A DNA stretch of 64,000 nucleotides, from assembly GCA_964581565.1 (NCBI GenBank), contig CAZOOZ010000001.1:131470-195469 (forward strand), given 5' to 3'. Under the pieces are notes generated by a model. It ran no database searches and was not told the origin of the DNA. It was given only the letters and a program-made list of their open reading frames with translations. The position numbers were made by a program, and so were the translations under genes. Shown piece after piece: positions 7,972 to 63,642 of the stretch. Each line of letters opens with the position of its first letter. Position 1 is the first letter of the stretch. Origin of the DNA: an uncultured Eubacteriaceae bacterium. Lineage in GTDB: Bacteria > Bacillota > Clostridia > Eubacteriales > UBA1433.

Positions 7972-8784
7972 ATGAAAATGCGTAAAACATTAATTTTACT
8001 CACAGTGGTCTTATTTATATTTGTAAGCTTTGCAGCCTGCGGTCAGAGCAGCTCGGCGACAGATGAATCATTAAAATATATCACAGATAAGGGCGAATTG
8101 ATATTAGGCCTTGACGATGCTTTCCCGCCGATGGGTTTTAGGGATGACAATGATGAAATCGTCGGATTTGATATTGATGTTGCAAGAGCAGTCTGTGAAA
8201 AATTGGGCGTAGAGCTTGTGCTTCAGCCGATAGATTGGAATGCAAAAGAACAAGAACTGAATACCAAAAATATTGACTGCATATGGAACGGATTTTCGGT
8301 AAACGAAGAACGTATGGAAAATATGACGCTTTCCGAACCATACATGGATAACAATATGGCTCTTGTTGTACGCGCCGATTCGGGCATTGCCACGCTTGCG
8401 GATATGGCCGGAAAAAGTCTAGCCCTTCAAGCAGGATCAAGCGCACTCGATGCATTAGATGAAAATGCGGAATTCAAAGACAGTCTGGACGAAGTTGTAG
8501 AGCTAAAAGATAATCTGCAGGCTCTAATGAATCTTGATACCAAATCTGTCGATGCCGTTTTAATGGATGATGTGTCGGCAAGATATTATATTGCAACAAA
8601 TGATAAGGATTTTGTAATTGTTGACGAATATCTGTCAACGGAAGAATATGCGGTCGGTTTCAGAAAAGGCGACGAAGCGTTGAAAGATGCTGTTGATAAT
8701 GCACTGCAAGAATTTGCTGCCGATGGAACACTTGCGGAAATTTCTACGCAATGGTTTGGTGAAGATATCACAAAAATAAAATAA
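7972..8784 (+). CDS. Amino-acid ABC transporter substrate-binding lipoprotein
   Basis: Signal peptide with lipobox (SFAACGQ). SBP family-3 pattern (LGLDDAFPPMGF ... GFDIDVARAV ... IDCIWNGFS). Confidence 0.85.
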   Translation: MKMRKTLILLTVVLFIFVSFAACGQSSSATDESLKYITDKGELILGLDDAFPPMGFRDDNDEIVGFDIDVARAVCEKLGVELVLQPIDWNAKEQELNTKNIDCIWNGFSVNEERMENMTLSEPYMDNNMALVVRADSGIATLADMAGKSLALQAGSSALDALDENAEFKDSLDEVVELKDNLQALMNLDTKSVDAVLMDDVSARYYIATNDKDFVIVDEYLSTEEYAVGFRKGDEALKDAVDNALQEFAADGTLAEISTQWFGEDITKIK

Positions 8785-8855
8785 AAGCAATGCTTTTATA
8801 AGAACTACGGGGCTGTAGAAAATACAGCCTCTTTTAAGTCGAGGATGGATAGACT

Positions 8856-9497
8856 ATGGATTTTAATCAATTGTTGGGGCCGATGCTTGAGGGCACTTTT
8901 GTTCTGCTTAAGATATTTTTTTTAACACTGCTTTTTGCGCTGCCCTTGGGTCTGCTCGTTGCGTTTGGGAGAATGAGCAAAAGAAAATATATCAGCCGGC
9001 CTGTTCGAGCCTATCAGCTCATCATGCGCGGAACACCGTTGATACTGCAGTTGATGTTTGTGTTTTTTGCACCTTATTACATATTCGGCAGGACATATGA
9101 TCGTTTTACCGCAGCGATCATCGCTTTTGTTATCAACTATGCAGCGTATTTTGCAGAAATCTATCGCGCCGGGATAGAAAGTATTCCCCAAGGACAATAT
9201 GAAGCGGCCAAAGTGCTCGGGTACTCAAAAGCAAAGACGTTTATCAGAATCATTATTCCTCAGGTTGTAAAACGTATTTTGCCGCCGATGGGCAATGAAA
9301 CGATGACACTTGTAAAAGATACGGCATTGGCTTACACAATCGGGGTCGCCGAGCTTTTTCGTGCAGCGACCAACGCATCAAGCAGAGCGTTTTCCACGAT
9401 GCCTTTGATTGTTGCCGGCCTGATATATTTTATTTTGAACTTCGTTGTAGAGAAATTATTTATTCAAGCTGAGAAAAAGCTGGATTATTACAAATAG
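8856..9497 (+). CDS. Amino-acid ABC transporter permease (His/Glu/Gln/Arg family)
   Basis: Multi-TM protein with the EAA-like loop (YEAAKVLGYSKAKTFIRIIIPQ). Located in the operon between the SBP and ATPase genes. Confidence 0.85.
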   Translation: MDFNQLLGPMLEGTFVLLKIFFLTLLFALPLGLLVAFGRMSKRKYISRPVRAYQLIMRGTPLILQLMFVFFAPYYIFGRTYDRFTAAIIAFVINYAAYFAEIYRAGIESIPQGQYEAAKVLGYSKAKTFIRIIIPQVVKRILPPMGNETMTLVKDTALAYTIGVAELFRAATNASSRAFSTMPLIVAGLIYFILNFVVEKLFIQAEKKLDYYK

Positions 9498-9508
9498 CGG
9501 AGGAGAAA

Positions 9509-10276
9509 ATGTCGGTTATAGAAGCAAGCAATCTATATAAAAATTATAATGGTATAAACGTATTGAATGGCGTATCGCTTACCGTAAACGAAGGAGAAGT
9601 TGTCGCCGTTATTGGTCCGTCGGGATCGGGCAAGTCAACGTTGTTGCGATGTCTGAATCAATTGGTCTATATAGACAGCGGCAGCATTAAAGTTGGCGGT
9701 ATTAATATGGTCGGTACAGATGAAAAGGGAATATGCAGATATGCGCATAAATCTGTGCTGCATCAAATTCAATTAAAGACAGGACTCGTCTTTCAGAATT
9801 TTCATCTTTTCCCTCATTATAATGTGCTGAAAAACATTACCGATGCGCCGGTACAGATATTAAAAATGTCTAAAAAAGAAGCGGAAGAAAAAGCGTATGC
9901 ATTACTTGAACGAATGAATCTTTCCGATAAGGCCGAGGCATATCCTTATCAATTATCAGGCGGGCAAGCTCAAAGGGTATCGATTGCCAGGGCGCTTGCA
10001 CTCTCACCCACCGTGCTGTTTTTTGATGAACCCACAAGTGCGCTCGATCCGGAACTCACGATAGAAATCTTAAAAGTAATTAAAAATTTGGCCAAAGAAA
10101 AAATGACTATGGTGGTTGTTACGCATGAAATGGCTTTTGCACGGGATGTAGCCGATCGAGTTATTTTTATGGATAACGGTTCTGTTATTGAGCAAGGAGC
10201 GGCACAGGAACTATTCACCAATCCGTCAAGCGAGAGAGTAAAACAATTTTTACAGCATTTTTCAATGGAAGGCTGA
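9509..10276 (+). CDS. Amino-acid ABC transporter ATP-binding protein (GlnQ-like)
   Basis: Walker A GPSGSGKST, signature LSGGQAQRVSIARA, Walker B LFFDEPTSALDPE. Confidence 0.9.
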   Translation: MSVIEASNLYKNYNGINVLNGVSLTVNEGEVVAVIGPSGSGKSTLLRCLNQLVYIDSGSIKVGGINMVGTDEKGICRYAHKSVLHQIQLKTGLVFQNFHLFPHYNVLKNITDAPVQILKMSKKEAEEKAYALLERMNLSDKAEAYPYQLSGGQAQRVSIARALALSPTVLFFDEPTSALDPELTIEILKVIKNLAKEKMTMVVVTHEMAFARDVADRVIFMDNGSVIEQGAAQELFTNPSSERVKQFLQHFSMEG

Positions 10277-15079: not shown

Positions 15080-15886
15080 TTATTCTAATATTTTTGGGTT
15101 TTTCAATATTTTTTCGACCGTTTTAAATGCCTTGGACATTGTATACCCGTCACATATTCGCTCGTCAATTGTATAACCTATTGATATTGTTTTAACGCCT
15201 TCGGATGATTTTTGTGTTGTTTTGCCAATTCCCGCGAAAAGGCTGCATGTGCCAAAATTATATAAATGGTGGTATACACGATCGAGTTTTATGGATTTTA
15301 AATAGGTAATATACATGCTCGCATGAAACGGGCTGGCATTTATAATACTTTTGGGAAGAAAGTTATGATTATCTGCAAATTTGCATAAACCAACACCTAT
15401 TCGAATAAGAAAATTTGGCAATTTATTGAAAAAATTAGCCAATGCTTCCGATTGGTTATCATTGATGCTTTTTGTAGCTTTGTTGATTTCTTCCTGCACA
15501 ATCTTTTGTATGTCACAGATATTTTCATTTCCACTGAAACTAATTTTTATAGTCGATTCGTCGCTGTGAAGATCCAGCCGTTTTTTGATAGTAAATGCAA
15601 TGCTGATATCATCTCTCATATAAATTCTTCTATTCACGATAAAACGGTTCAGCTGAGGATTTTCACGAATCGTTCGGACATAACACGCAATAAATAATGA
15701 CAAAAAAGAAATATCTACATGCTCGCTCTGGCGTTTTTCCCTTATATATTCCGTTAAAGGATATGCGTCAAATTCATGCTGATACAGAACTTGAGATTCT
15801 GTTCTGGTAGGCATTATATGAGGAATCACTCTAAAAAACGGATCAGGTAAAGTGATATATTTTCCATCACTTCTTTTTTTGAACAT
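15080..15886 (-). CDS. 2-oxoacid dehydrogenase E2 / CAT-like acyltransferase domain protein with variant active-site motif
   Basis: C-terminal DERICDG aligns with the DHRxxDG motif of the E2 catalytic domain. I moved the start to the ATG at 15886 (MFKKRSDG), which is preceded by AAAGGA. Confidence 0.55.
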   Translation of the reverse strand: MFKKRSDGKYITLPDPFFRVIPHIMPTRTESQVLYQHEFDAYPLTEYIREKRQSEHVDISFLSLFIACYVRTIRENPQLNRFIVNRRIYMRDDISIAFTIKKRLDLHSDESTIKISFSGNENICDIQKIVQEEINKATKSINDNQSEALANFFNKLPNFLIRIGVGLCKFADNHNFLPKSIINASPFHASMYITYLKSIKLDRVYHHLYNFGTCSLFAGIGKTTQKSSEGVKTISIGYTIDERICDGYTMSKAFKTVEKILKNPKILE

Positions 15887-16067
15887 CGTGTAGATCCTTT
15901 CAAACGAAATAATATTTGAGTGGAGGCCATTGTGTTCATTATAATTTTTATTCATGAAAATGTAAAGATATTTACACACATTCTGTGAGAGAGGATAAGA
16001 GATGCTTTTCAATTTTTGTATTTTATGATAATATTTCTATATATTTTGTCTGCATAAAGGAGTATCT

Positions 16068-18391: not shown

Positions 18392-19789
18392 ATGGATAAT
18401 GATAACAGCAAAAAATATGAAGACGAAGAAAGCAGTATAAACAACGAAAATGATCAGTCAATAAATGACGAAGATGATCAATTAATAAATGTACACACAG
18501 ATATTGCGAATACTGATGAAAATAATGGGTCAGATATACAGCTTGTCGAACAAATACCTGAAGTTGAATATGATATCTCCGATGATGAAGAATATGATAC
18601 ATACGAGAAGAAAAGTGTCATTCAAAGAAGATGGTTCAAAGTTTTAATATCTGTTATCGTATTGCTGGGTATTGCAGGTGTTGTAGGTTTTGGTTATATT
18701 AATAAACTTGCAAGCAGTGGATCGGATTCGCTGGCAAGAGAAAATGATAAATTTTTAAATAAAGTTAATGTTTATAAGGGTTTAAATACTGCCGAGAATT
18801 TTGACAGCAATACAATTAATGTGTTGGTTTTTGGTATCGACAGAAGTGAGAGCCGGGAGGAAAGCGGTAAATTCGGGGATATTTACAGACCCGATACGAT
18901 CGTCTTAGCAAGTATAAATTTAGACACAGAAGAAGTGAATTTAATTTCTATTCCCAGAGATACGTATGTGCCTCTTTACGGAAACAGAGGAAAAACAAAG
19001 ATTAACTCATGTATGTATTACGGAGCTATTTACGGCGATAAAGACAGTGATTTCGAAAACGGCTTGGATTGCCTTGAGCAAACGGTAAGTGCTTTGTTTG
19101 GCGGGGTTCCCATTGATTTTTATGTGGGAATAGATATGGATACTGTTGTTGATGTTGTCAACAGCATGGGCGGGGTTGAATTCGATGTTCCGTATAATTT
19201 ATATAAAGATGGCGAGTTGAGGCTAAAAAAAGGGACTCAAGTCTTAAATGGAAAAAATTTTCTTTTCTTGGCTAGAGATAGATACAATGCAGGAAGCGAT
19301 ATCGAAAGAGTATCCATGCAGCAGAAATTATTAAAAGCATTGTTTGAACAATTCAAGGAATCCAATAAGTTGATGTCAATTCCCACGATCTATCAGTCAT
19401 TGAAAGAAGATATCTATACGAACTTTACTTTTGAGCAAGTTGTATCGTTGGCTGCCAATATAAAAGATTTGGAAGTTGATAATATAAATACACATACATT
19501 TCCAGGATTTTATGGCTCCAGAGATGGTATTTCTATGTGGATTATCAATCAATCTGCAAGAGTGTCTTTGATTAAAGAAGTTTTTGGTATTACCGCATCA
19601 CAATGGACGCAAGAGGAACTAAGAATAGATACACGCAAAAATACAACGACCACAGATTCAAGTGATGAAGAAGATGTAACGCCTGATGACGATGCATCAA
19701 CCGACGATACATCAACCGACGATGCTTCTACTCCTGATGACACATCGACAGAAGATACTCCTGCGGACGATTCTACAACAACGCCTTAG
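18392..19789 (+). CDS. LytR-CpsA-Psr (LCP) family glycopolymer ligase with acidic N- and C-terminal tails
   Basis: Single TM (VLISVIVLLGIAGVVGFGYI). LCP core (VLVFGIDRS ... RPDTIVLASIN ... ISIPRDTYV ... FLARDRY). Confidence 0.85.
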   Translation: MDNDNSKKYEDEESSINNENDQSINDEDDQLINVHTDIANTDENNGSDIQLVEQIPEVEYDISDDEEYDTYEKKSVIQRRWFKVLISVIVLLGIAGVVGFGYINKLASSGSDSLARENDKFLNKVNVYKGLNTAENFDSNTINVLVFGIDRSESREESGKFGDIYRPDTIVLASINLDTEEVNLISIPRDTYVPLYGNRGKTKINSCMYYGAIYGDKDSDFENGLDCLEQTVSALFGGVPIDFYVGIDMDTVVDVVNSMGGVEFDVPYNLYKDGELRLKKGTQVLNGKNFLFLARDRYNAGSDIERVSMQQKLLKALFEQFKESNKLMSIPTIYQSLKEDIYTNFTFEQVVSLAANIKDLEVDNINTHTFPGFYGSRDGISMWIINQSARVSLIKEVFGITASQWTQEELRIDTRKNTTTTDSSDEEDVTPDDDASTDDTSTDDASTPDDTSTEDTPADDSTTTP

Positions 19790-19798
19790 GCAGAAAAA

Positions 19799-19824
19799 TT
19801 AGCCTTTTACAGGCTGATTTTTTA
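19799..19824 (+). terminator. Weak rho-independent terminator after the LCP gene
   Basis: Stem TTAGCC / GGCTGA followed by TTTTTT. Confidence 0.45.
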
Positions 19825-19850: not shown

Positions 19851-19878
19851 TTGACAAATATTAAAAATATATTAAAAT
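19851..19878 (+). promoter_or_regulatory. Candidate sigma-A promoter of the phosphonate operon
   Basis: TTGACA (19851-19856), a 16-nt spacer, then TAAAAT (19873-19878). It lies ~80 nt upstream of the ATG at 19961. Confidence 0.45.
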
Positions 19879-19960
19879 ATTGTAAAATCAAATTATTATT
19901 GTAATAAGAAAAACTATGATATAATTAAAAGAAGTTGCATTTTTCTAAGGAGAAAAAAAT

Positions 19961-21274
19961 ATGCAAGATAAGAAAAAAGTATATATAGCTGTGTCCGCTG
20001 ATATTATTCATAGCGGACATATAAATGTAATCGAAGAAGGGGCAAAATACGGACGAGTCATTATAGGTCTTATGACAGATGAAGCGATCGCAGCCTATAA
20101 GAGACTTCCTTTGTTAGATTATGAGGCAAGAGAAAAAATATTTAAAAATATAAAAAATGTTTCAAAAGTAGTACCGCAAACAAGTCTGGATTACACAGAA
20201 AATTTATTAAAATTTAAACCTGATTATGTTCTTCATGGAGACGATTGGAAAAAAGGGATTCAATCGCTTGTAAGAGAAAATGTAATTACCATTCTTTCGC
20301 AGTGGGGCGGAGAATTGGTGGAAGTGCCCTATACAAAAGGAATTTCCGCTACAGACTTAGAGCAGCAATTCAGGCTGTTAAATAACACGCCTGATAACCG
20401 ACGTGCAAAACTTAAACGTTTACTTTCTTTAAAACCCTACATTAGTGCAATGGAAGCTTCCAACGGCTTGACAGGGCTTATCGTTGAAAATATCAGAGTT
20501 GAAAACCCCGTTACTGCGACAATGAAGGAATTTGATGCTATGTGGGTCAGCAGTTTATGTGACTCTACTTTTAAAGGAAAGCCCGACATTGAACTGGTAG
20601 ATTTAACAAGCAGAATAAACACAATCAATGAAATAATGGAAGTGACGACAAAGCCGATTATTTTAGACGGCGATACGGGCGGGAAAATCGAACATTTTGT
20701 GTATAACGTAAAAACACTTGAACGACTTGGTGTTTCCGCAATTATTATTGAAGATAAAACAGGGCTGAAGAAGAATTCGCTTTTTGGTACGGATGTTGAG
20801 CAGACAATGGACGACCCGCATTTATTCGCAAAAAAAATCCTGGCCGGAAAACAAGCGCAGGTTACAAGAGATTTTATGATTTTTGCGAGAATCGAAAGTT
20901 TGATTGCGGGCTATGGGGTTGATGAGGCATTATCGAGAGCGAAGATCTATATAGAAGCAGGTGCGGATGGCATTACAATTCACAGCAAAGAAAAAGACGG
21001 AAAAGAAGTCTTGGAATTTTTAGCAAAATTCAGAGAATATTCGACAGATATACCTATTATCGTTATCCCTACATCGTATAATTATATTAAAGAAGAAGAA
21101 TTGCATGCGGCTGGAGCGAATATTATTATTCATGCCAATCATTTACTTCGAAGTGCGTATCCTGCGATGGAAAAAACGGCAAAAATGATTTTGCAATGCG
21201 GACGAAGTAAAGAAGTAGACGAGTTTTGCATGCCTATAAATGAGATACTGACATTGATTCCAGGAGGCAAATAG
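19961..21274 (+). CDS. Bifunctional cytidylyltransferase (TagD-like, N-terminal) / phosphoenolpyruvate mutase (C-terminal)
   Basis: N-terminal HxGH (IIHSGH), GDDW and an RTxGISTT-like YTKGISAT motif. The C-terminal ICL/PEPM fold has SNGLTGLIVE, ILDGDTGG and IIIEDKTGLKKNS (the Ppm EDKxxxKxNS motif). The gene sits directly upstream of a Ppd gene. Confidence 0.85.
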   Translation: MQDKKKVYIAVSADIIHSGHINVIEEGAKYGRVIIGLMTDEAIAAYKRLPLLDYEAREKIFKNIKNVSKVVPQTSLDYTENLLKFKPDYVLHGDDWKKGIQSLVRENVITILSQWGGELVEVPYTKGISATDLEQQFRLLNNTPDNRRAKLKRLLSLKPYISAMEASNGLTGLIVENIRVENPVTATMKEFDAMWVSSLCDSTFKGKPDIELVDLTSRINTINEIMEVTTKPIILDGDTGGKIEHFVYNVKTLERLGVSAIIIEDKTGLKKNSLFGTDVEQTMDDPHLFAKKILAGKQAQVTRDFMIFARIESLIAGYGVDEALSRAKIYIEAGADGITIHSKEKDGKEVLEFLAKFREYSTDIPIIVIPTSYNYIKEEELHAAGANIIIHANHLLRSAYPAMEKTAKMILQCGRSKEVDEFCMPINEILTLIPGGK

Positions 21275-21276
21275 AA

Positions 21277-22386
21277 ATGATTGAAACAAAAGAATTTTAT
21301 GATTACCTGCAAACAAAACAGCTGGATATGTATATGGGAGTACCCGATTCGCTTCTGAAAAATATCTGTGCCTGCATAAAAGAAAATTGTTGTAATAAGA
21401 AAAATATTATTACAGCAAACGAGGGAAATGCCGTGGCCATGGCATGTGGATATCATATAGCTACAGGCAAATATGGTATTGTTTATATGCAGAACTCAGG
21501 ACAAGGAAATACTGTAAACCCTCTGCTATCTCTCGCGGATGAAGATGTTTATAAAATTCCGATGCTGCTCCTTATCGGATGGAGGGGAGAGCCGGGGACA
21601 AAAGATGAGCCGCAGCATAAAAAACAGGGGAAAGTGACCCTGTCTTTATTGAATGCGATGGGCATTGAGTATATTATTTTGGAAGATGATTATAAATGTC
21701 AGATAGATTATTGCTATGAATATATGAATAAATATAATAAACCGATAGCACTTATTATACGCAAAGGGCTGTTTTCGGACTATAAGGGATCCAAGAAATC
21801 AAGTCCGTACGTTTTGACACGAGAAGAAGCATTAAAGAGTATTTTAAAAATACTTGATGATGACGAGTTTATTGTGTCTACGACAGGGAAAACATCGCGA
21901 GAAATTTTTGAGTTGAGAGAAGCAAGTGGGCAAGGGCACTCCAATGATTTTCTCACCGTTGGTTCTATGGGGCATACGGCATCCATTGCTTTTGGCATGT
22001 CGCTTGGGACGGAGAAAAACATATATTGTATCGATGGCGACGGATCGTTTCTAATGCACGCAGGTGGTTTTGGAATCATTGCGCAAAATGCGCAGAGTAA
22101 TTTTAAATATATATTGATCAACAATGGTGCGCATGAATCTGTGGGAGGACAGCCGACAGTAGCTTTTGATGTCGATATCGAAATGATATTAAAAGGATTT
22201 GGGTTTAAAGATGTTTATACGGCGACTGACTGCAAAGAAATAGAAAATGCAATGGAAAGTCTTAAAGTCAGTCATAGAAGTGCATTGATAATCTATACAA
22301 AACAAGGTTCTAGAAGCGATTTAGGGCGTCCGACAACAACGCCTCAGGAAAATAAAATTGCGATGATGGAGAAATTGAGTAAATAG
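21277..22386 (+). CDS. Phosphonopyruvate decarboxylase (TPP-dependent)
   Basis: N-terminal GVPDSLLKN motif typical of Ppd, TPP-binding GDGSFLMH ... NNGAHES, ~370 aa. There is a 2-nt gap after the mutase gene. Confidence 0.85.
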   Translation: MIETKEFYDYLQTKQLDMYMGVPDSLLKNICACIKENCCNKKNIITANEGNAVAMACGYHIATGKYGIVYMQNSGQGNTVNPLLSLADEDVYKIPMLLLIGWRGEPGTKDEPQHKKQGKVTLSLLNAMGIEYIILEDDYKCQIDYCYEYMNKYNKPIALIIRKGLFSDYKGSKKSSPYVLTREEALKSILKILDDDEFIVSTTGKTSREIFELREASGQGHSNDFLTVGSMGHTASIAFGMSLGTEKNIYCIDGDGSFLMHAGGFGIIAQNAQSNFKYILINNGAHESVGGQPTVAFDVDIEMILKGFGFKDVYTATDCKEIENAMESLKVSHRSALIIYTKQGSRSDLGRPTTTPQENKIAMMEKLSK

Positions 22387-22388
22387 GA

Positions 22389-24227
22389 ATGAGAGCGGTT
22401 ATTTTGAATTCGGGATTGGGAAAAAGAATGGGCGAGCTGACGGAAAATAATCATAAAGCGATGGTGCAACTGTCAAACGGAGAAGCTGTTTTTTTAAGAC
22501 AGCTTCGTATTTTGATGGAATGCGGGATCAAAGAATTTGTCGTCACAACAGGGCCGTATAAAGAAAAGATAGAAGCTGCGGTGGCGCAGATGAATACAAA
22601 GAACCAAGTATCTTTTACTTTTGTGCATAATCCGTGCTATGATAAAACCAATTATATATATTCAATGTATTTGGCGAAGCAATTCTTGGATGATGATATA
22701 CTTCTCATGCACGGCGATCTGGTCTTTACGAAAAAACTTGTCGAGGAAATGTGTAAAGATAAGAGAGATAATATTGCTACCGTAAATAAAAAGAAAAGTT
22801 TGCCTGAAAAAGATTTTAAGGCGAAACTTGAAGAAAATAGAATCCAAAAGATAGGCATAGAGCTTTTTGATGAAGACTGCTATGCATTCCAGCCTTTTTA
22901 TAAGCTAAGCAAAGAATATGTCATGCGATGGCGAGAACAAATATGTAAATTTATAGAAAAAGGAATTGATCAGGTTTATGCGGAAAATGCATTGAATGAA
23001 ATCCTGCCTTCTTTAAACATGAATGCATTCGATTACGAAGATTATTATATAGATGAAATCGATACGCCTGAAGACCTAAAGAGGGTAAGCGAAGAAATCA
23101 GGCAATATGATTTTGATGCACAGCAGATATATGATGAAGAAAACGCATATTTGCAAATTGAGTCTATTCTTCAGAAAAATAACGTCAAAAAAGTTATGCT
23201 GGTTTGCGGCAAAAGTTACGACAGGCAGTTTATAAAAGAGTACATGGATTCTTTGAACGTGGAGATGATTCGTTTTAGCGGCTTTGCATCTAATCCTGTA
23301 TATGAAGATGTGGTGAAAGGTGCTGAATTATTCAAGGCCAATAAATGTGAATTTATAATCTCGGTTGGCGGGGGAAGCGCTATCGATACAGCGAAAAATA
23401 TTAAATTGTTTTCATGTCTTGACAGCACTGATAATTATTTGAAGCAAAAATATAAATTTTGCCCTGTGCAGCATTTAGCAATACCTACAACGGCAGGAAC
23501 GGGCAGTGAATGCACCAGATTTTCTGTTTTGTATTATAAAGGGCAAAAACAATCAGTCAGCCATGACAGCATCATCCCCGATTATGTTATTTTAGAACCC
23601 AGATTGCTGCTTGGGTTACCCGAATATCAAAAAAAATCCACAACGCTTGACGCACTTTGCCAAGCAGTTGAAGCTTTTTGGTCGGTAAATTCAAATAAGA
23701 TCAGCAAACAATATTCTAAAGAGAGTATACAGCTCATACTTAATAGTTTTGATAAAGCACTTTTAAATGATTTAAAAGCATTAAAAAATATGCAAAAAGC
23801 ATCTTTTTTAAGCGGGAAAGCAATTAATATAGCGCAAACAACAGCTGCACATGCGATGAGCTATAAATTATCGTCACTTTATAACATTTCTCATGGTCAT
23901 GCCGTAAGCTTAAGTCTGCCTTATATCTGGGAATATATGGTTCAGCATTTAGATCAATGTGCGGATAAAAGAGGCAGAGCATATTTAGAAAATGTATTCA
24001 TCGAGTTAAACGATATATTTGGGGTCAGTAATACTGATGAATGTATCAATAAATTTAGACAAATATGCAATGAATTTAATCTGCAAAATCCAAAATTAAA
24101 AAATAAAGATGAGTTAGAAGAGTTAATAAACTCTGTAAATCCGCTTCGCTTGAAAAATAATCCTGTCACATTGAATATAGATAGTATTGAAGATATTTAC
24201 AGACATATTTTAACTGAGAAAAAGTGA
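22389..24227 (+). CDS. Fusion of LicC-like nucleotidyltransferase (N-terminal) and iron-containing alcohol dehydrogenase (C-terminal; predicted phosphonoacetaldehyde reductase)
   Basis: N-terminal MRAVILNSGLGKRMGELTENNHKAMV plus YDKTNYIYSMYLAK and IDEIDTPEDL, which parallel pneumococcal LicC. The C-terminal domain has GGGSAIDTAKN and the His-rich AHAMSY...SHGHAV Fe-ADH motifs. Confidence 0.8.
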   Translation: MRAVILNSGLGKRMGELTENNHKAMVQLSNGEAVFLRQLRILMECGIKEFVVTTGPYKEKIEAAVAQMNTKNQVSFTFVHNPCYDKTNYIYSMYLAKQFLDDDILLMHGDLVFTKKLVEEMCKDKRDNIATVNKKKSLPEKDFKAKLEENRIQKIGIELFDEDCYAFQPFYKLSKEYVMRWREQICKFIEKGIDQVYAENALNEILPSLNMNAFDYEDYYIDEIDTPEDLKRVSEEIRQYDFDAQQIYDEENAYLQIESILQKNNVKKVMLVCGKSYDRQFIKEYMDSLNVEMIRFSGFASNPVYEDVVKGAELFKANKCEFIISVGGGSAIDTAKNIKLFSCLDSTDNYLKQKYKFCPVQHLAIPTTAGTGSECTRFSVLYYKGQKQSVSHDSIIPDYVILEPRLLLGLPEYQKKSTTLDALCQAVEAFWSVNSNKISKQYSKESIQLILNSFDKALLNDLKALKNMQKASFLSGKAINIAQTTAAHAMSYKLSSLYNISHGHAVSLSLPYIWEYMVQHLDQCADKRGRAYLENVFIELNDIFGVSNTDECINKFRQICNEFNLQNPKLKNKDELEELINSVNPLRLKNNPVTLNIDSIEDIYRHILTEKK

Positions 24228-25078
24228 GAAAGATGCACGATAATTTATATAGAAATAACATTGAACATACTCAAGTAAAGCAACTGCAAGCATACGAGCT
24301 GGAGATTCTGCTTGCAGTAGACGAATTCTGCAAGCAGAACAATATCAATTATTATTTGGGGGAAGGAACTCTACTCGGCGCAATCCGGCACAATGGCTTT
24401 ATTCCGTGGGATGATGATATAGATCTTTTGATGCCGAGAGAAGATTATGAAAAATTTATTAGTCTGGCTCAGATTGCATTTCCTGATGGTTATTATTTAG
24501 ACTGTATGGAAACAAATCCAAATTACTGGGTCATAGGAGCGAAAATTAAATTGACGAGACAAACAAAATTTGAACAGACAAAAGTAAAAAAACTATCAAA
24601 GTATGCCGGGCCGTATATAGACATTTTTCCTTTGGATTATGTTGCAAAAAGAAGTAGTTTCCCGCAGCTTTGGCAAGGATACAAAATAAAAGCTTTACGA
24701 AGAACATTATTTTTCAAAACCAGATATTCAATGAATTTTAAAAATAAATTTAATGTCTTATTATTTTTGTTCAGTAAAATCGTAACTATTAAATTTATTC
24801 ATAAGAGAATAAAAAAAATCATGACTAAATATAACGATAAAAAAGATAATGCATATATGCTGAGTTATGCAAGTTATTATCCGCCCGCCAATCAGACAGT
24901 GCATAAATCTGTATACGGCAAGGCAAGAATGCATGTTTTCGAAGGCTACGAATTCCCGATTCCGGCGAAAACAGAGTGTTTGCTTACGGCCATCTACGGT
25001 GATTATATGACCGTTCCCGATGAGGAAGACAGAATCATGAAGCATCACTTTTCCGTAAAACAAAATTTTTCATATTAG
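24224..25078 (+). CDS. LicD-family phosphotransferase
   Basis: LGEGTLLGAIRHNGFIPWDDDIDLLMPREDYEKF and YGDYMTVPDEE motifs. GTGA overlap with the upstream stop (alternative ATG at 24233). Confidence 0.85.
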   Translation: MRKMHDNLYRNNIEHTQVKQLQAYELEILLAVDEFCKQNNINYYLGEGTLLGAIRHNGFIPWDDDIDLLMPREDYEKFISLAQIAFPDGYYLDCMETNPNYWVIGAKIKLTRQTKFEQTKVKKLSKYAGPYIDIFPLDYVAKRSSFPQLWQGYKIKALRRTLFFKTRYSMNFKNKFNVLLFLFSKIVTIKFIHKRIKKIMTKYNDKKDNAYMLSYASYYPPANQTVHKSVYGKARMHVFEGYEFPIPAKTECLLTAIYGDYMTVPDEEDRIMKHHFSVKQNFSY

Positions 25079-25091
25079 CAAAGGAAGATGT

Positions 25092-26975
25092 ATGGAACAA
25101 GGTAGCATAAAAGTATCTGTTATTGTGCCGGTTTATAATGTGGAGCATTATCTGCCGCAATGTCTGGACAGCTTGGTAAACCAGACATTAAATGATGTGG
25201 AAATTCTTGTAATCAATGATGGCTCCCCCGATAATTCTCAAGTCATTATCGATGAATATGTAAGAAAATATCCAAATAAAATAAAAGCATTTATAAAAGA
25301 AAACGGTGGGCTCAGCGATGCACGCAACTATGGCATCAAAAAGGCGAAAGGGGAATATATCGGGTTTGTTGACTCGGATGATTATGCCGAAGTAAATATG
25401 TTCGAGGAGCTTTATATAAAAGCCGTCAGTGAGAACTTTGACGTTGTTGTTTGCTATATAAATGAGCTTAAAGAAGATAAAACAAAAATCATGCCTCTGC
25501 ACTATTTAAGAGCTTTTGGAGGCAGCGTTGAAGAAAACCCCGAGGTTTTATTTGCGTGTAAATCTTATGCATTTAACAAATTGTATAAAAGAAAACTCTT
25601 TATAGACAATGATCTATATTTTCCTGTGGGCCAGGTTTTTGAGGATTCGGCCACTGTCTATAATGTGCTTTTAATGGCAAATAAAATTGGGCTTGTCGAT
25701 AAAGCTTTATGCAATTACAGAACAGACAGAGTAAATTCCATCACGAACAGTGTTGATATGGGCATGTTTGATGTATTTAAATCCTGCGATAGTATTATTA
25801 ATTTTTATACATCAAAAGGTGTGTTTGATATCACATATGAAGTGCTGGAAAATATATGCAGAATGCATGTTTTTGCAAGAATCAATACACTTAAAAATTC
25901 AACGAACAGAAAATTTCAAAATCAATTTTTTGATAAAGCATATAAATATTTAGATAACCATTTTCCAAATTGGAGAAAAAATAGATATTATCAATATTCG
26001 TATAAAAATTTAATCAAAAAAAGAACGTACAAAAAGTTTACGAAAGCAAAAATGTATAAAACAAGATTAAAAATGTATTTTATAATCCCGATGAGTTTTC
26101 GGCGAAAACTGATGAAAATATTTTGGCGCAAGAAACCAAAGCTTGTTAAGGCAAAGTTTTCGCCGGAACAATTTAAACAATTACAGCTCATTGAATTAGA
26201 CATATTAAAGACTGTGGATGCTTTTTGCAAAGAAAACAATATCGCGTACTATTTGGCCGAAGGAACACTGCTTGGAGCAATCAGGCACAACGGATTCATA
26301 CCATGGGATGATGATGTGGATATTCTGATGCCGAGAGAAGATTATGATAGATTTATCAAATTATTCAATACACAAATAATTGATAACTGCATACTTTGCA
26401 GTCGTCATACTATAAAAGAGTATCATTTGCCGTTTTCAAAAATAGTCACACTTCAAGATACAGGCTTTATTAATAACGAAAGCTTTTCTTTAAAAGAGTA
26501 TAATGGGGTATATATTGATATTTTTCCTCTCGATAAAGCAATCGAATATGGAGAGGAACAGAATCAAAGAAGAAAAAAAATAAGAAAATACAGAGATATG
26601 CTTCTTTTTAAAACAGGCTATCCCATGAAAGCAACAAAAGAGAGGTTTGTCACAAAGATAAGATCTTGTTTTTATTCATATGAAATTTTACATAAAAGAA
26701 TAGAGCAGCTTTCAACTTACTATAATGATAAAGAAGATTGCGAGTATGTAGCTAACTATGCCAGCTCATACCAGCTGAAAAGACAAACATTTCCCATATG
26801 GGCATTTGAAGAAGTTGAATATGTTTCCTTTGAAACATATAAACTACCTGTTCCAAAAGGATATGATTTGGTTTTGAGTATCATTTATGGCGACTACTTA
26901 ACGTTCCCGCCTCTTGAAAAAAGAAAATCAAAACATAGCTTTATTTATATGAATGACGGGCAGATAAAGAGTTAA
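25092..26975 (+). CDS. GT2 glycosyltransferase (N-terminal) fused to LicD-family phosphotransferase (C-terminal)
   Basis: GT2: VSVIVPVYNVEHYL ... INDGSPDNS ... FVDSDD. LicD: LAEGTLLGAIRHNGFIPWDDDVDILMPREDYDRF ... YGDYLTFPP. Confidence 0.85.
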   Translation: MEQGSIKVSVIVPVYNVEHYLPQCLDSLVNQTLNDVEILVINDGSPDNSQVIIDEYVRKYPNKIKAFIKENGGLSDARNYGIKKAKGEYIGFVDSDDYAEVNMFEELYIKAVSENFDVVVCYINELKEDKTKIMPLHYLRAFGGSVEENPEVLFACKSYAFNKLYKRKLFIDNDLYFPVGQVFEDSATVYNVLLMANKIGLVDKALCNYRTDRVNSITNSVDMGMFDVFKSCDSIINFYTSKGVFDITYEVLENICRMHVFARINTLKNSTNRKFQNQFFDKAYKYLDNHFPNWRKNRYYQYSYKNLIKKRTYKKFTKAKMYKTRLKMYFIIPMSFRRKLMKIFWRKKPKLVKAKFSPEQFKQLQLIELDILKTVDAFCKENNIAYYLAEGTLLGAIRHNGFIPWDDDVDILMPREDYDRFIKLFNTQIIDNCILCSRHTIKEYHLPFSKIVTLQDTGFINNESFSLKEYNGVYIDIFPLDKAIEYGEEQNQRRKKIRKYRDMLLFKTGYPMKATKERFVTKIRSCFYSYEILHKRIEQLSTYYNDKEDCEYVANYASSYQLKRQTFPIWAFEEVEYVSFETYKLPVPKGYDLVLSIIYGDYLTFPPLEKRKSKHSFIYMNDGQIKS

Positions 26976-27138
26976 GAAATTTATAAGTTGTATAAACGGC
27001 TTCGTTTCTGTATAATAGAGGCGATATATTTAGTAGATTAAATGAAAAATAAATATAATAAAACATAAAAACAATCTATACGTTTATAATAATAATGCGC
27101 TAGATGCATGACAAAAATGATGCAAAGTATCATTACAG

Positions 27139-27960
27139 TTGGAGAATTCGAAATTGACTATAGAACAAATAAAAGAGTTGCAGGCTATAGAACTAGATAT
27201 CTTATTGCAAGTAGACAAAGTTTGTAAAAAACATAATATAACCTATTATCTCGGAGAAGGCTCTCTGCTTGGAGCTGTACGCCATAAAGGGTTTATCCCA
27301 TGGGATGATGATTTGGATATTCTAATGAAGCGGGATGAGTATGAAAGATTTTTAAAAATCGCACCGGCAGAAATGGGCCCGAATTATGAAGTACAGCATC
27401 CTACCACTGTGTATAGCTATTGGTCGCCTTTTATTAAAGTAAGATTGCTTGGAAAACAGAAGTTCAGGCAAAAGCATATCGCACATCTTACCGAAAATAA
27501 CGGGCCGTATATCGATATTTTTCCGATGGAATCGGTGCCGAAACTAAAAAGTCTCGGACAATTATGGCAAGGCATGAAGATAAATTTTTTGAGAGCCATG
27601 CTTACCTATAAACTAGTTCTGCGTAAACCTAATACTATGAAAAGAAAACTAGTCACTGCATCATCCAAGTTTTTATCGATCAATACAATACACAAGATGC
27701 TTGATAAAAATTTCAAACTATATAATGACAGAAAAGATAATAATTATACCGTCACGCTTGCCAGTTATCATAATATGTTTAATCAGACAGTGCCCGATGA
27801 AGTATACGGGCAGCCTGTAGAGGTAGAGTTTGAGGGACACGTGTTTCCGGCCCCAAGGCAATACGATTATCTTTTAAGACGGGTTTATGGAGATTACACA
27901 AAGCTGCCGCCCCTAGAAAAACAGACTATTAAGCATCATTTTATAGTCATTGAAGAATAA
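27139..27960 (+). CDS. LicD-family phosphotransferase (third paralog)
   Basis: LGEGSLLGAVRHKGFIPWDDDLDILMKRDEYERF ... YGDYTKLPP. The more likely start is the TTG at 27154, 7 nt after GGAGAA. Confidence 0.8.
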   Translation: MENSKLTIEQIKELQAIELDILLQVDKVCKKHNITYYLGEGSLLGAVRHKGFIPWDDDLDILMKRDEYERFLKIAPAEMGPNYEVQHPTTVYSYWSPFIKVRLLGKQKFRQKHIAHLTENNGPYIDIFPMESVPKLKSLGQLWQGMKINFLRAMLTYKLVLRKPNTMKRKLVTASSKFLSINTIHKMLDKNFKLYNDRKDNNYTVTLASYHNMFNQTVPDEVYGQPVEVEFEGHVFPAPRQYDYLLRRVYGDYTKLPPLEKQTIKHHFIVIEE

Positions 27961-47864: not shown

Positions 47865-49691
47865 TTATCTGTTTCTTTGTCTTAATTTTATTATTATAAT
47901 ACATGCTGCAAGAACTATAAATACCGCACCTATGATAATGACGGCAGTGAGCGGGAATGTCGAGAGACTGACGGGATCAAAGCTAAATTCCAGCTGCTCT
48001 CCGTCATCTGTTGTGCATTTCACTTTCAGCGTAATATCTTTATCGTCTTTATAGTCTTGATCTGATAGCTGTATTACTTGTTTATCGCCAATGATAAGGG
48101 AATCGAGTGTGGCGAGCAAGGCGCCGTTTCTCGCATCGATGATTTCTATATTATTTAAATTTGCATTTCCGTCATTAAGCAGTGTCACATCAAAGCTGAC
48201 ATGTTCTTTATCTTTAGAATTGATATTTTCAATTAAGAGCATTGTGCTCGGTTCGTTTTTACGCTCGACTTCAAAAATCTGTTTCGATAATATGAAAGAA
48301 TTTGCCGTATTTTTTCCGTCTTGCAAAGTCACGCTCACACTGGGAGCACTGACAAAATCGTTTGTGAATTTACCGGTTGCTGTAAAGCTGAATTCTTCAC
48401 CTACAGCTATGCTGTCCGCGGTATAAATTTCTCCCAGAACACCATCCGATATTACCAAATCCGTCAGTTCATAGTCACTGACGTTTTTGGCGGTGTAGGA
48501 AATGGTCGCGTCTGTATAAAAAGGCAACTTATCCGTATCTATACTTCTTTGTATATCCAAACTTGGCGGAACAGAAGAAATGGTGAGTTCGGCGGTTGCT
48601 TTAAAAGGCGTGCTGCTGTCGGCTACATAGGCGTAAATTGCAAACGAATATTGCTTATCGGGTTCAATGGTCATATTTTCCGTAGATGAATTTGAAGCGC
48701 CTGATGCAACTGCGCCTATATCAATGATAGGTTCACTCGATGCTTTGCCGCTGTCATCAAGCAGATAGATAAAAGCTGTAATGACTTCGTAATCCGTATT
48801 ATTTTGAAAATCAAACATAATATCCATTTTTTCTGCGGTTTCGATATAGGTCTTTGCAGGCGTGATATCTAAAGTCAGTTTGCTCTCAATCGGTGAATCT
48901 ATAACTTTGCCTGTTACCTTAACTGTGGGAAGCTCTGTTCGTACACTTTCGCCTGTCATGGCATCCGTATATTCTAAAATAATGTACGAGTTGACGGAGC
49001 CTGCCGGAACAGAGATGTCTTTTTGAAACCGCTTGCTCTGGCCTTCTTTGAGATCGCCGAGGCTGCCAAGCAATCCGTAAGTGGAATCATAGACTTTTAC
49101 ATCGTTTGCTTTCCCGCCCGATGATAAGGTTACTTTTCCGCCGAAAAAGACAGGAAAGTCGCTGATGCCAACCGGATCGGCATCTGTGGTATAAGTGACG
49201 GTAAACTGGGGGGAATAAAGCTTGATCGTGTTACTTGAAGAGGAGTATTCAATCCATTCATTATCCAGTTTATACATAAGTTTGTAAGCAATAGTTATGC
49301 TTTTTCCGTATGTAGATTTCATCGTAACAGAGGTGCCGGTCACTTTTGCTGTTGAGTTTTGGTTTACTGTGGCATACAAGGTTGTCCAGTCTGAGACAAC
49401 GCTGCCGGCCGTGGATGTTATTTTTTCATAAATTGCTATTTCTATAGAACCAGTATACGTGGAGGAGTTTTTAATGCTGTATGTTTGAGCAAATACGCTA
49501 TCCTCGCTTACGGTATAAGTGTCATCTATTGTTTTACCCTGGCCGCTGCTTACAATTTGCGATACGCTTAGGTTCAAATTTATGCTGTCTTGTGTGAGAA
49601 GTTCTTCCGCTGAGATAAATGTCATACTAAAAAGTAAAAAGGTAGTTATAAATAATAACGATATAATCGGTTTAATATTTCTTTTTATCAT
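47865..49691 (-). CDS. Large membrane-anchored surface protein, beta-rich repeat domains, unknown function (608 aa)
   Basis: N-terminal signal peptide (LFSMTFISAEE). The body is S/T/V/Y-rich and looks like several Ig-like modules. A C-terminal TM segment is followed by the basic tail KLRQRNR. Confidence 0.7.
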   Translation of the reverse strand: MIKRNIKPIISLLFITTFLLFSMTFISAEELLTQDSINLNLSVSQIVSSGQGKTIDDTYTVSEDSVFAQTYSIKNSSTYTGSIEIAIYEKITSTAGSVVSDWTTLYATVNQNSTAKVTGTSVTMKSTYGKSITIAYKLMYKLDNEWIEYSSSSNTIKLYSPQFTVTYTTDADPVGISDFPVFFGGKVTLSSGGKANDVKVYDSTYGLLGSLGDLKEGQSKRFQKDISVPAGSVNSYIILEYTDAMTGESVRTELPTVKVTGKVIDSPIESKLTLDITPAKTYIETAEKMDIMFDFQNNTDYEVITAFIYLLDDSGKASSEPIIDIGAVASGASNSSTENMTIEPDKQYSFAIYAYVADSSTPFKATAELTISSVPPSLDIQRSIDTDKLPFYTDATISYTAKNVSDYELTDLVISDGVLGEIYTADSIAVGEEFSFTATGKFTNDFVSAPSVSVTLQDGKNTANSFILSKQIFEVERKNEPSTMLLIENINSKDKEHVSFDVTLLNDGNANLNNIEIIDARNGALLATLDSLIIGDKQVIQLSDQDYKDDKDITLKVKCTTDDGEQLEFSFDPVSLSTFPLTAVIIIGAVFIVLAACIIIIKLRQRNR

Positions 49692-52174: not shown

Positions 52175-53161
52175 ATGGAGCAAGAGATTTCTATAAACTC
52201 AAAGGATGAATATTTCAGTGATCTCGTAAATCGCTATGGCTTCTCTTATGCGCAGGGTGAAAATACGGCAACCCTGATACCTCCAAAAGAGCTTGGTAGC
52301 GGATATATCAAAGCGGTTCAAGCAAGCGGCGATATTGACATCGGGATCATAGATCTTTTTCTGGCGCGGCCGATTATTTCATATTATGATAATTATTCAA
52401 ATACCTGTGAGGTGACATATTGTTTCAGCGGACATATTTTCTACTCGGAAACTGGTATCACAAAGGCAAATTTAAATAAAAATGAAATGGGAATATATGC
52501 ACTTCCATACAGTCGGGGAATGACCATGATTCCTTCGGGTAAGCGGGTATGTGTTGTGTCGGTGGAATCAAAGAAGCCCTTTCACGATCGACTGCCGTAT
52601 ACCGAGAAGTGCACACAATATGACGATACGTCAGTGAAGAAATTATTACACCAGTTGGTACAGCCGAAAAAGGCAAATGCAAAAATCCACAACTATTTCA
52701 GTCAAATTATAGAAAATAATATCGGTCGGGAATTAAAGAATACATACCTTGATTCGTTAGGCAAAGTCTTATTATCTGATCTGTGGCAGGAAAATATCAT
52801 ACTTCCTCTCACCGGAGGGAAACGCACGGTTTATTCCGGTTTTGAAAGAAACGCACTACTGGAAGCCAAAGAAATTTTATGTGACCATTATTCTTCTCCG
52901 CCAACTATTCCTGAGTTGGCCAAGATGGTTGCGCTCAACGAGCATAAGCTAAAATCTGGTTTCCGTGATATGTATGGCAAGAGCATATATGAATACGTCC
53001 GCAGTTTAAGGATGAAAAACGCAAGCCACCTGCTTGAGAATGTTGATTTAAGCATCAGCGAGATTGCGGGGATGGTGGGGTACGTGAACACCAGCCATTT
53101 TGCCCGCGCCTTCCGAAATGAATATGGCTTAAACCCCAGCGATTTTCGTCTTGGAGTGTAA
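52175..53161 (+). CDS. AraC-family transcriptional regulator (328 aa)
   Basis: C-terminal double HTH (TIPELAKMVALNEHKLKSGFRDMYG ... ISEIAGMVGYVNTSHFARAFRNEYGLNPSDFR) and a ~220-aa N-terminal putative ligand domain. Confidence 0.9.
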   Translation: MEQEISINSKDEYFSDLVNRYGFSYAQGENTATLIPPKELGSGYIKAVQASGDIDIGIIDLFLARPIISYYDNYSNTCEVTYCFSGHIFYSETGITKANLNKNEMGIYALPYSRGMTMIPSGKRVCVVSVESKKPFHDRLPYTEKCTQYDDTSVKKLLHQLVQPKKANAKIHNYFSQIIENNIGRELKNTYLDSLGKVLLSDLWQENIILPLTGGKRTVYSGFERNALLEAKEILCDHYSSPPTIPELAKMVALNEHKLKSGFRDMYGKSIYEYVRSLRMKNASHLLENVDLSISEIAGMVGYVNTSHFARAFRNEYGLNPSDFRLGV

Positions 53162-53204
53162 AAAATCCCGGTTGGAGCGGCGGGAACAACATCATAACTG
53201 GTAA

Positions 53205-53238
53205 AATAAGTGTTGATTTGTAGGCGCTTATTTTTTTT
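53205..53238 (+). terminator. Rho-independent terminator after the AraC gene
   Basis: Stem AATAAGTG / CGCTTATT followed by a T-run. Confidence 0.6.
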
Positions 53239-53245
53239 GAATTGA

Positions 53246-53263
53246 AGTTAGCAAAGACTAACT
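53246..53263 (+). promoter_or_regulatory. Palindromic box AGTTAG-CAAAGA-CTAACT (copy B)
   Basis: 6-bp arms, 21 nt upstream of the permease TTG start. It is embedded in a 34-nt stretch that is 29/34 identical to copy A by manual alignment. Confidence 0.55.
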
Positions 53264-53283
53264 ATATAGTGGGGGTACATATA

Positions 53284-58188: not shown

Positions 58189-58251
58189 AAATCCCGATCG
58201 GAGCGGTGAAAATCCGGTTCGGGGTGGTATAAAACCAAACATACCGTTAGA

Positions 58252-58283
58252 ATGGGCATTGAGGGATTGATGCCCATTTTTTT
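58252..58283 (+). terminator. Intra-locus rho-independent terminator immediately upstream of the exporter-fold ABC genes
   Basis: Perfect 8-bp stem ATGGGCAT / ATGCCCAT, then TTTTTTT, then AAGGAGG and the ATG at 58299. Confidence 0.7.
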
Positions 58284-58298
58284 AAGGAGGCAATCAGG

Positions 58299-63515: not shown

Positions 63516-63642
63516 TTTAAATGCCCCTCTGAAAAACATGCAGTAAAATATATAAATAAGTATATCACAAAATGTATAGTTTAAATGAATGAAAAATTTT
63601 ATTTAATAAATTTTTATGAATACATATTGTTTAAAATATATT

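Follow-up and report, generated by a model that had tools for sequence, protein, structure and literature searches.

In Streptomyces, the early fosfomycin enzymes Fom1, Fom2 and FomC together form the cytidylylated 2-hydroxyethylphosphonate (HEP), 2-HEP-CMP (PMC8158854; PMC6697681). In the Pnt pathways of oral anaerobes, PntC is represented by Ari-PntC and by Tde1415; the latter is an N-terminal PntC fused to a 2-aminoethylphosphonate (AEP) transaminase, was crystallised and makes CMP-AEP (PMC6697681). The Lic phosphocholine system of Streptococcus pneumoniae and Haemophilus influenzae cytidylylates its head group with LicC, followed by LicD-family transfer to glycans. Among isolated glycans, 2-HEP is known solely from the phosphonoglycans of Glycomyces sp. 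and Stackebrandtia, which are secreted actinomycete exopolysaccharides arising from a Ppm-Ppd-Fe-ADH (PhpC-type) neighbourhood, Fe-ADH being an iron-containing alcohol dehydrogenase (PMC8942020, PMC13576164). Wall teichoic acid loci and TagF-like capsule polymerases are further systems suited to comparison. Here, a six-gene operon (g1–g6) on the forward strand of DNA from an uncultured Eubacteriaceae bacterium was analysed (assembly GCA_964581565.1, contig CAZOOZ010000001.1, positions 131,470 to 195,469; this whole stretch of 64,000 nucleotides is called the window, and all positions refer to it). The operon, at 19961-27960, is probably a self-contained unit for phosphonyl tailoring, by which HEP is put on a glycopolymer of the cell surface.

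The operon has the three chemical steps and the bifunctional cytidylyltransferase-mutase architecture of the early fosfomycin pathway, but it lacks Fom3, FomD and Fom4, and its reductase carries an extra LicC-like nucleotidyltransferase. The LicD and glycosyltransferase family 2 (GT2) domains encoded downstream suggest that the nucleotide would be a handle for polymer transfer and not the transient tag of an antibiotic route. As in the Pnt pathways, a LicC-like PF12804 domain in g3 stands N-terminal to an enzyme converting phosphonoacetaldehyde, a second, Ppm-fused nucleotidyltransferase is present in the cluster, LicD-like transferases are nearby and a cell-surface destination is proposed. 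The fused partner in g3 is an Fe-ADH, whereas that of Tde1415 is a class-V aminotransferase, and HEP was predicted instead of AEP because of this difference. The features in common with the Lic system are the predicted order of steps, cytidylylation of a head group and then its LicD-family transfer to a glycan, and the PF04991 domains with the DDDxD motif; in contrast to that system, there are no genes for choline uptake or choline kinase, and the head group would be made de novo from phosphoenolpyruvate (PEP), with a C-P bond. The genes recurring beside the cassette in related genomes, TagF-like (PF04464), GT2/GT4 and ABC-2 exporter genes, recall wall teichoic acid and TagF-like capsule loci, whereas the operon in the window contains no TagF-like, TagO or TagGH genes, encodes LicD-family phosphotransferases and would use a phosphonate monomer.

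The motifs quoted in the original prediction (HSGH, GDDW, YTKGISAT, IIEDKTGLKKNS, GVPDSLL, GDGSFLMH and GGGSAIDTAKN) were all found in the translations, and its domain assignments held in Pfam and NCBIfam profile searches with scores far beyond chance (Table 1). With the mutase domain of g1, the 380 bits of TIGR02320 compared with 131 bits of Pphn_pyruv_hyd, 89 bits of prpB (methylisocitrate lyase) and 40 bits of CPEP mutase. The PEP mutase motif EDKX5NS (PMC6697681) was present as EDKTGLKKNS; thus, the domain is a mutase, as had been proposed, and not lyase-like. The N-terminal domain of g1 matched the structure of the Fom1 cytidylyltransferase (CyTase) domain, 5X3D, with 164 bits over residues 6-135, compared with 36 bits for TagD. 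The other PDB matches of g1 were 5UNC and 1M1B, with 150 and 127 bits, respectively. With HSGH (HxGH) and YTKGISAT in place, g1 was classed by its sequence as a Fom1-type CyTase-PEP mutase. Judged by the score with 5X3D, the N-terminal domain is closely homologous to the HEP-cytidylyltransferase domain crystallised from Streptomyces Fom1 and is predicted to cytidylylate HEP to CMP-HEP; AEP or another phosphonate would also be compatible. The g1-type homologues returned by the searches were close ones, with at least 71% identity. The g2 product reached 435.9 bits with TIGR03297 at an equivalog cut-off of 312.5, and the thiamine-diphosphate motif GDGSFLMH...NNGAHES was present.

The g3 product is predicted to be both the phosphonoacetaldehyde reductase and a HEP cytidylyltransferase. 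The PDB scores of its nucleotidyltransferase domain (NT3) were 42.7 bits with 2XME (inositol-phosphate cytidylyltransferase), 38.9 bits with 1JYK (LicC) and 28.7 bits with 6PD1 (Tde-PntC), and no close relationship to the characterised PntCs (Tde1415, Ari1348) was found. Residues G9, G11, R13, K23, D110, E223 and D225 of NT3 were invariant in 75 homologues, of which 67 came from loci with the Fom1-like cytidylyltransferase domain (CyT-type) and eight from loci devoid of it (CyT-less). By these scores and residues, NT3 is best described as a distinct, catalytically intact subfamily within the LicC/IPCT/PntC-like group. The amine contact of Tde-PntC, Glu104, corresponded to an invariant His108 in the g3 family, and the equivalent of Glu196 was kept as Glu199. 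A histidine at position 108 would fit a non-cationic, hydroxyl-bearing head group, without proving one.

In the Fe-ADH domain, the GGGS loop, D421, H488 and H502 were conserved in the same 75 homologues. The fourth metal ligand position, the His of the DxxxH motif (residues 421-425, nucleotides 23649-23663), was occupied by Gln425. A Gln was found there in 62 of the 75 homologues, namely in 54 of the 67 CyT-type proteins, the other 13 having His, and in 8/8 CyT-less ones; the best PDB match, 6JKO, likewise has Gln at this position. The Fe-ADH was the sole conserved core enzyme that could consume phosphonoacetaldehyde. Since the cut-off of the TIGR03405 model was not reached, the role of phosphonoacetaldehyde reductase was assigned from the context. 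An assignment as glycerol-1-phosphate dehydrogenase, supplying a CDP-glycerol precursor, was rejected: the NF002022 score was 28.7 bits, compared with 140 bits for TIGR03405, and this assignment would also leave phosphonoacetaldehyde devoid of a consuming enzyme. In public annotation, the NT3-FeADH proteins were named just 'iron-containing alcohol dehydrogenase' or 'hypothetical'.

The acidic motifs of the LicD family were present in the translations of g4, g5 and g6 as WDDDIDLLM, WDDDVDILM and WDDDLDILM, respectively. The three LicD domains scored 83-90 bits on the NCBIfam LicD-type equivalog model (Mf1), the cut-off of which is 225. They were 40-47% identical to each other, and each had its own best matches in other loci; by these values, they are taken as old paralogues belonging to three orthogroups. 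The GT2 domain of g5 matched GalT1 (5HEA) with 136 bits and TarS (5TZE) with 75 bits.

Fusions of these domains were compared in related loci (L numbers). Genes that are separate in the window were joined into one protein elsewhere, which indicates a shared pathway. The reductase was fused to the activating enzyme in every NT3-FeADH family member seen. The g4-type LicD was in one open reading frame (ORF) with NT3-FeADH in about 17 of 80 loci, and most actinobacterial homologues, about 905 aa in length, also carried the NT3-FeADH-LicD fusion. Single ORFs with the order NT3-FeADH-LicD-LicD (L011, 10001-13477, and L051, 7054-10845), NT3-FeADH-LicD-GT2 (L002, 2790-6524) and GT2-LicD-LicD (L026, 2751-5441) were detected. 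The combination NT3-FeADH-LicD-GT2-TagF-like was found once, as an ORF of 1847 aa (L004, 3255-8798) in a metagenome-assembled genome (MAG) of Oscillospiraceae. GT2-LicD fusions recurred in L001, L016, L018, L026, L063 and L069. Taken together, the fusions link one product to the steps of reduction, activation, transfer of phosphonyl and glycosyl groups and polymerisation of the teichoic type. For CMP-HEP as the putative donor of the LicD enzymes, the claim draws on a single line of evidence, the in-frame fusion of the g4-type LicD to NT3-FeADH. If not assembly artefacts, these very long ORFs, with up to five domains each, would rank with the furthest-reaching cases in which the synthesis of a precursor is fused with the assembly of a polymer.

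The NT3-FeADH fusion was found in 339 species-level genomes and, at 90% identity grouping, in more than 120 clusters with nearly full-length coverage and 47-78% identity. The carriers in Clostridia were Oscillospiraceae, Acutalibacteraceae, Christensenellaceae and Eubacterium; others belonged to Bacilli, Propionibacteriaceae, Microbacteriaceae and Eggerthellaceae, together with a few MAGs labelled Muribaculaceae or Bacteroides. Among the carriers in culture are Yeguia hominis NSJ-40 (L034), Butyrivibrio sp. LB2008, Adlercreutzia sp. ZJ304, Tessaracoccus caeni and T. aquimaris. No Glycomycetaceae name was present among the 120 best actinobacterial profile matches, most of which were nameless entries; Glycomyces and Stackebrandtia had been looked for there.

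For the synteny counts, the window domains were mapped onto the 80 best loci, 73 of which had enough upstream sequence. Beside NT3-FeADH, and in the gene order of the window, PepM was found in 72/73, Ppd in 73/73 and the Fom1-like domain in 64/73 loci. LicD was directly adjacent or fused in 25/73. Among the 51 well-covered loci, i.e. those flanked by 5 kb or more in either direction, two or more LicD genes were present in ten and three, as in the window, in four. The recurrent neighbours were ABC-2 exporter pairs, TagF-like proteins, GT2/GT4/GT8 transferases, epimerases, Wzy and acyltransferases. Downstream of the cassette of Yeguia hominis came genes for a TagF-like-GT4 fusion, for LicD and for a glycosyltransferase of the glycolipid type. 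As a separate observation, the three-gene cassette stood alone among housekeeping genes in five loci of a Clostridia clade (L043, 6313-7398, and four others). Genes of an HD-domain protein and a 138-aa protein devoid of a Pfam match were located immediately upstream of the CyT-PepM gene in these loci; it is conceivable that the CMP-phosphonate is the substrate of a hydrolase there, in a role similar to that of FomD.

Eight loci (L046, L049, L056, L059, L064, L067, L071, L077) had a stand-alone PepM and neither the Fom1-like domain nor LicD. The gene-by-gene check of this set covered L056 (1661-11806), which is Butyrivibrio sp. LB2008, and some of its families recurred in the other seven loci. 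The L056 cluster encoded a CDP-alcohol phosphatidyltransferase, a B12-binding radical-SAM enzyme of Fom3-like architecture, a PlsC-type acyltransferase, an AMP-binding enzyme and two proteins lacking a Pfam match. NT3 was the only nucleotidyltransferase found in the eight loci, of which L056 was the one scanned in full; yet the types of enzyme encoded downstream in L056 work on substrates activated with CMP or CDP. The active-site residues of NT3 were identical in both locus types, the only difference being Y91, which was replaced by Val. Because NT3 had no detected counterpart in the CyT-less loci and the active site is the same, NT3 of g3 was taken as the obligatory activator of HEP. This cluster type resembles a pathway to phosphonolipids, in which the head group may be a C-methylated form of HEP.

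The proposed pathway was built on the observed family membership, conserved catalytic residues, gene order and fusions. The mutase domain of g1 would convert PEP to phosphonopyruvate, and g2 would decarboxylate the latter to phosphonoacetaldehyde, pulling the unfavourable first step forward. The Fe-ADH domain of g3 would then reduce phosphonoacetaldehyde to HEP, the predicted head group. HEP would be joined to CMP, giving CMP-HEP, with NT3 of g3 as the conserved activator and the Fom1-like domain of g1 as an additional activator, either of HEP or of a phosphonate closely related to it. In the last step, the LicD enzymes would move the phosphonyl group from CMP-HEP, the presumed donor, to hydroxyls of sugars or polyols at the cytoplasmic face. 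The g4 product may be the primary transferase, acting first; g5 may additionally add a sugar through its GT2 domain, and g6 may serve a further site or acceptor. The acceptor would be a lipid-linked precursor of a teichoic-acid-like polymer or wall polysaccharide, with the polymer presumably being anchored to peptidoglycan. This agrees with the original prediction, in which LicD enzymes used CMP-HEP to decorate a glycopolymer, and it is supported by the Fom1 similarity, the LicD fusions, the glycan-rich neighbourhoods and the lack of a recurrent AEP transaminase.

Several findings weigh against HEP tailoring of a glycopolymer. LicD was located within 10 kb in only 22/51 of the well-covered loci. 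NT3 is remote from PntC, the match to 6PD1 having an E-value of 1.1e-5 and covering the N-terminal 130 residues, and it is nearer to 2XME. The TIGR03405 score of the Fe-ADH, 140 bits, was far from the cut-off of 424 and no better than the scores of generic Fe-ADH models. The presence of two nucleotidyltransferases for one product is puzzling, as was noted for AEP clusters by Rice et al. (PMC6697681). In addition, no genes for polymer backbone synthesis, initiation or export were found near the operon in the window: Pfam and NCBIfam scans of the flanking ORFs detected no TagO, TagF, TagGH or flippase genes.

The alternative that survived best holds that HEP is a chain-building unit. HEP is bifunctional, bearing a hydroxyl and, at its opposite end, a phosphonate. 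The GT2-LicD protein and the other LicDs could alternate sugar and HEP, forming a teichoic-acid-like backbone with C-P bonds; the three LicDs would be primer, extender and polymerase, with priming and elongation supplied separately by the two nucleotidyltransferases. The GT2-LicD, LicD-LicD and NT3-FeADH-LicD-GT2-TagF-like fusions do resemble multi-domain teichoic-type polymerases, genes of the TagF-like and TagF-GT4 types are repeatedly found next to the cassette, Yeguia hominis included, and the LicD orthogroups with their 40-47% identity appear to be old paralogues. In contrast, most related loci carry no more than one LicD gene, and no LicD-family polymerase of such kind was found documented in the literature consulted. 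Furthermore, HEP of the known phosphonoglycans is reportedly a substituent, bound as an ester to hexose or glycerol (Yu et al. 2014). A backbone function was given a minor but real chance. If true, gut Gram-positives would have a wall polymer with a repeating linkage that contains a phosphatase-resistant C-P bond.

It is unlikely that the head group is not HEP but AEP, with the transaminase encoded elsewhere, or a hydroxylated or methylated HEP, the Fe-ADH then having another role. AEP is the commonest surface phosphonate and was predicted for 56% of ppm neighbourhoods (PMC8942020), and the sequence does not fix the substrate of the Fe-ADH. Cytidylyltransferase-Ppm fusions make up 23.6% of all Ppm (PMC6697681) and some of them presumably stand in AEP clusters, therefore the similarity to Fom1 alone is no proof of HEP specificity. 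Against a different head group stand the fusion of reductase and activator in every family member and the invariant His in place of the AEP-amine contact Glu104 of Tde-PntC; the operon also contains no oxygenase or methyltransferase. The original prediction had noted no AEP transaminase, radical-SAM methyltransferase or epoxidase in the window, and indeed the scanned window ORFs yielded neither a class-V aminotransferase nor a B12 radical-SAM enzyme nor an epoxidase, the scan covering all but a few ORFs, of which only the one at 60047-61846, among ABC exporter genes, exceeds 300 aa. When 124 non-redundant families of neighbouring ORFs were pooled and scanned with Pfam, no class-V aminotransferase was recurrent.

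An ordinary donor of the LicD enzymes, CDP-choline, CDP-glycerol or CDP-ribitol, made by one of the nucleotidyltransferases while the phosphonate meets another fate, is quite improbable. The LicD-family enzymes characterised to date transfer phosphocholine or polyol phosphates, which would speak for such donors, and an ordinary donor would explain the presence of two nucleotidyltransferases. NT3 is also nearer to inositol-phosphate and phosphocholine cytidylyltransferases than to PntC. The Lic pathway provides the precedent for phosphocholine transfer (PMC6697681). Genes for such precursors, however, were missing from the operon, those of a choline kinase, a choline transporter and a TarJ-like enzyme included. 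NT3 occurs in fusions with LicD and with the reductase that would form the phosphonate, and the g1 domain is Fom1-like and not TagD-like (164 and 36 bits, respectively). A fosfomycin-type small-molecule natural product can hardly be expected: g1-g3 do correspond to Fom1, Fom2 and FomC (PMC8158854), but no Fom3-like radical-SAM enzyme, FomD or Fom4 epoxidase was detected in the operon or the scanned window ORFs, their place is taken by three LicD transferases and a GT2, and the neighbourhood family is dominated by glycan-synthesis genes.

The coordinates of the operon and of the elements preceding it are presented in Table 1. The ORF list with translations gave six co-directional genes with spacings of 2, 2, -4, 13 and 163 nt from g1 to g6. 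The earlier description of six tightly spaced genes followed by a sixth was right about the co-directional set of six and wrong about the count: g1-g5 are tightly packed, and g6 is the sixth gene, behind the 163-nt gap. The 4-nt overlap of g3 and g4 would become a distance of 5 nt if g4 starts at the ATG at 24233. The gap before g6 is AT-rich and could contain a second promoter. For g6, a start at TTG 27154 behind a GGAG ribosome-binding site is likelier, and gene callers give 268 aa.

Table 1. Positions of the operon genes, their domains and the upstream elements in the window.
Feature	Position	Strand	Details
g1, Fom1-type bifunctional protein	19961..21274	+	437 aa; PF01467 + PF13714
g1, cytidylyltransferase domain	residues 6-135, nt 19976-20365	+	CTP_transf_like E 2.7e-11
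g1, PEP mutase domain	residues 151-435, nt 20411-21265	+	TIGR02320 380 bits, cut-off 319.55
g2, phosphonopyruvate decarboxylase (thiamine-diphosphate enzyme)	21277..22386	+	369 aa; TPP_enzyme_N + TPP_enzyme_C
g3, NT3-FeADH fusion	22389..24227	+	612 aa; PF12804, PF00483, PF00465, PF25137
g3, LicC/IPCT-like nucleotidyltransferase (NT3)	residues 1-240, nt 22389-23108	+	PF12804 (NTP_transf_3) E 2.3e-10
g3, group III Fe-ADH	residues 246-607, nt 23124-24209	+	Fe-ADH E 1.2e-37; PDB 6JKO 124 bits
g4, LicD-family transferase	24224..25078	+	284 aa; PF04991 E 3.1e-46; alternative ATG start 24233
g5, GT2-LicD fusion	25092..26975	+	627 aa
g5, GT2 domain	residues 4-248, nt 25101-25835	+	PF00535 E 1.2e-34
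g5, LicD domain	residues 379-600, nt 26226-26891	+	PF04991 E 1.8e-45
g6, third LicD paralogue	27139..27960	+	273 aa; PF04991 E 4.1e-45
LCP (LytR-CpsA-Psr) glycopolymer ligase gene	18392..19789	+	PF03816 E 2.3e-33; TIGR00350 99 bits, cut-off 62.3
Terminator-like hairpin directly 3' of the LCP gene	19793..19823	+	13-bp stem, then T run
Promoter-like site upstream of g1	19851..19878	+	TTGACA-16 nt-TAAAAT; 11/12 consensus matches; consensus match alone

Upstream of g1, a TGATATAAT-like extended -10 element was also seen at about 19918-19926, and an AAGGAG ribosome-binding site was located 8 nt 5' of the ATG. Since the hairpin and the promoter-like site stand between the LCP gene and g1, the phosphonate genes most likely form their own transcription unit. 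The LCP gene was rejected as a member of the operon on account of these elements and of its unconserved adjacency, which, by tblastn on the related loci, was kept only in the closest relative, L001. The original prediction had used the neighbouring LCP ligase as an argument: the gene is there, but it probably belongs to a separate unit, and because the adjacency is conserved solely in L001, it argues only faintly for a connection. The link of the LCP gene to the operon is uncertain.

The genome closest to the window is L001, a MAG of an uncultured member of the Eubacteriaceae; amino-acid identities across the operon are 75-97%, and the LCP gene is upstream there as well. The species of the window itself, with the same gene context, was found on 17 metagenome contigs. 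The flanks of the operon consisted of housekeeping genes, including FtsEX, a PcsB-like peptidase, an aconitase-family hydratase, a convergent ABC-F gene, Rex, glutamine synthetase and a class IV (branched-chain type) aminotransferase. The Rfam scan of the whole window gave no match, so no riboswitch or RNA element is involved.

Some other parts of the window were recorded as well. Between the PcsB-like and aconitase-family genes, a 310-aa ORF (15080-16012, minus strand; 268 aa in metagenome annotations) had a faint match only, to a 2-oxoacid dehydrogenase acyltransferase domain. The ABC importer at 7972-10276 has a family-3 solute-binding protein with a weak match to PF12974 (phosphonate-binding) of 28.8 bits at a cut-off of 27, and it is most likely an amino-acid transporter. 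The region 52175-61846, with genes of an AraC-type regulator, an Opp/Dpp-type ABC importer (permeases, family-5 binding protein) and ABC exporters, had a GC content of 0.45-0.50, compared with about 0.36 in the rest of the window, and is probably a horizontally acquired island. Two minus-strand ORFs, 47865-49691 (608 aa) and 62508-63539 (343 aa), gave no Pfam match at E <= 1e-4.

The original prediction had regarded the combination as not characterised, which holds at the bench; the pathway logic and the HEP branch, in contrast, have already been described (PMC6697681, PMC8942020). The logic of the Pnt pathways, the PhpC-type neighbourhoods and the HEP phosphonoglycans of two actinomycetes are already known, and the system is widespread, not unique to the window and not categorically new. 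PhpC-type (HEP) neighbourhoods make up 8.5% of ppm neighbourhoods, and there are only two PhpC-type gene-cluster families with a known product, one being the HEP exopolysaccharide of Stackebrandtia (PMC8942020). According to a 2026 paper, two actinomycetes are still the only phosphonoglycan sources of HEP (PMC13576164). Within the library searched, there was no study characterising a LicD phosphonyl transferase, the NT3-FeADH fusion or an HEP-bearing wall polymer of Firmicutes, and the searches on LicD with HEP, on CMP-HEP and on 'phosphonyl tailoring' after 2019 found nothing beyond PMC6697681 and PMC8942020.

Phosphonate decorations alter the charge of the bacterial surface, its resistance to phosphatases and its recognition by phages and the immune system. 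So far, biochemistry is available only for AEP-type tailoring, and HEP-glycans come from just two soil actinomycetes. The predicted CMP-HEP three-gene cassette is common in Clostridia and Bacilli of the gut and rumen, and in Propionibacteriales and Eggerthellaceae; many of these carry it as a fusion with transferases of the LicD, GT2 and TagF types. If HEP tailoring of a glycopolymer is confirmed, the wall chemistry of Gram-positive bacteria would gain a new head group, and there would be a first handle on the transfer step of phosphonyl tailoring and a likely biological source of the HEP that is catabolised by other microbes.

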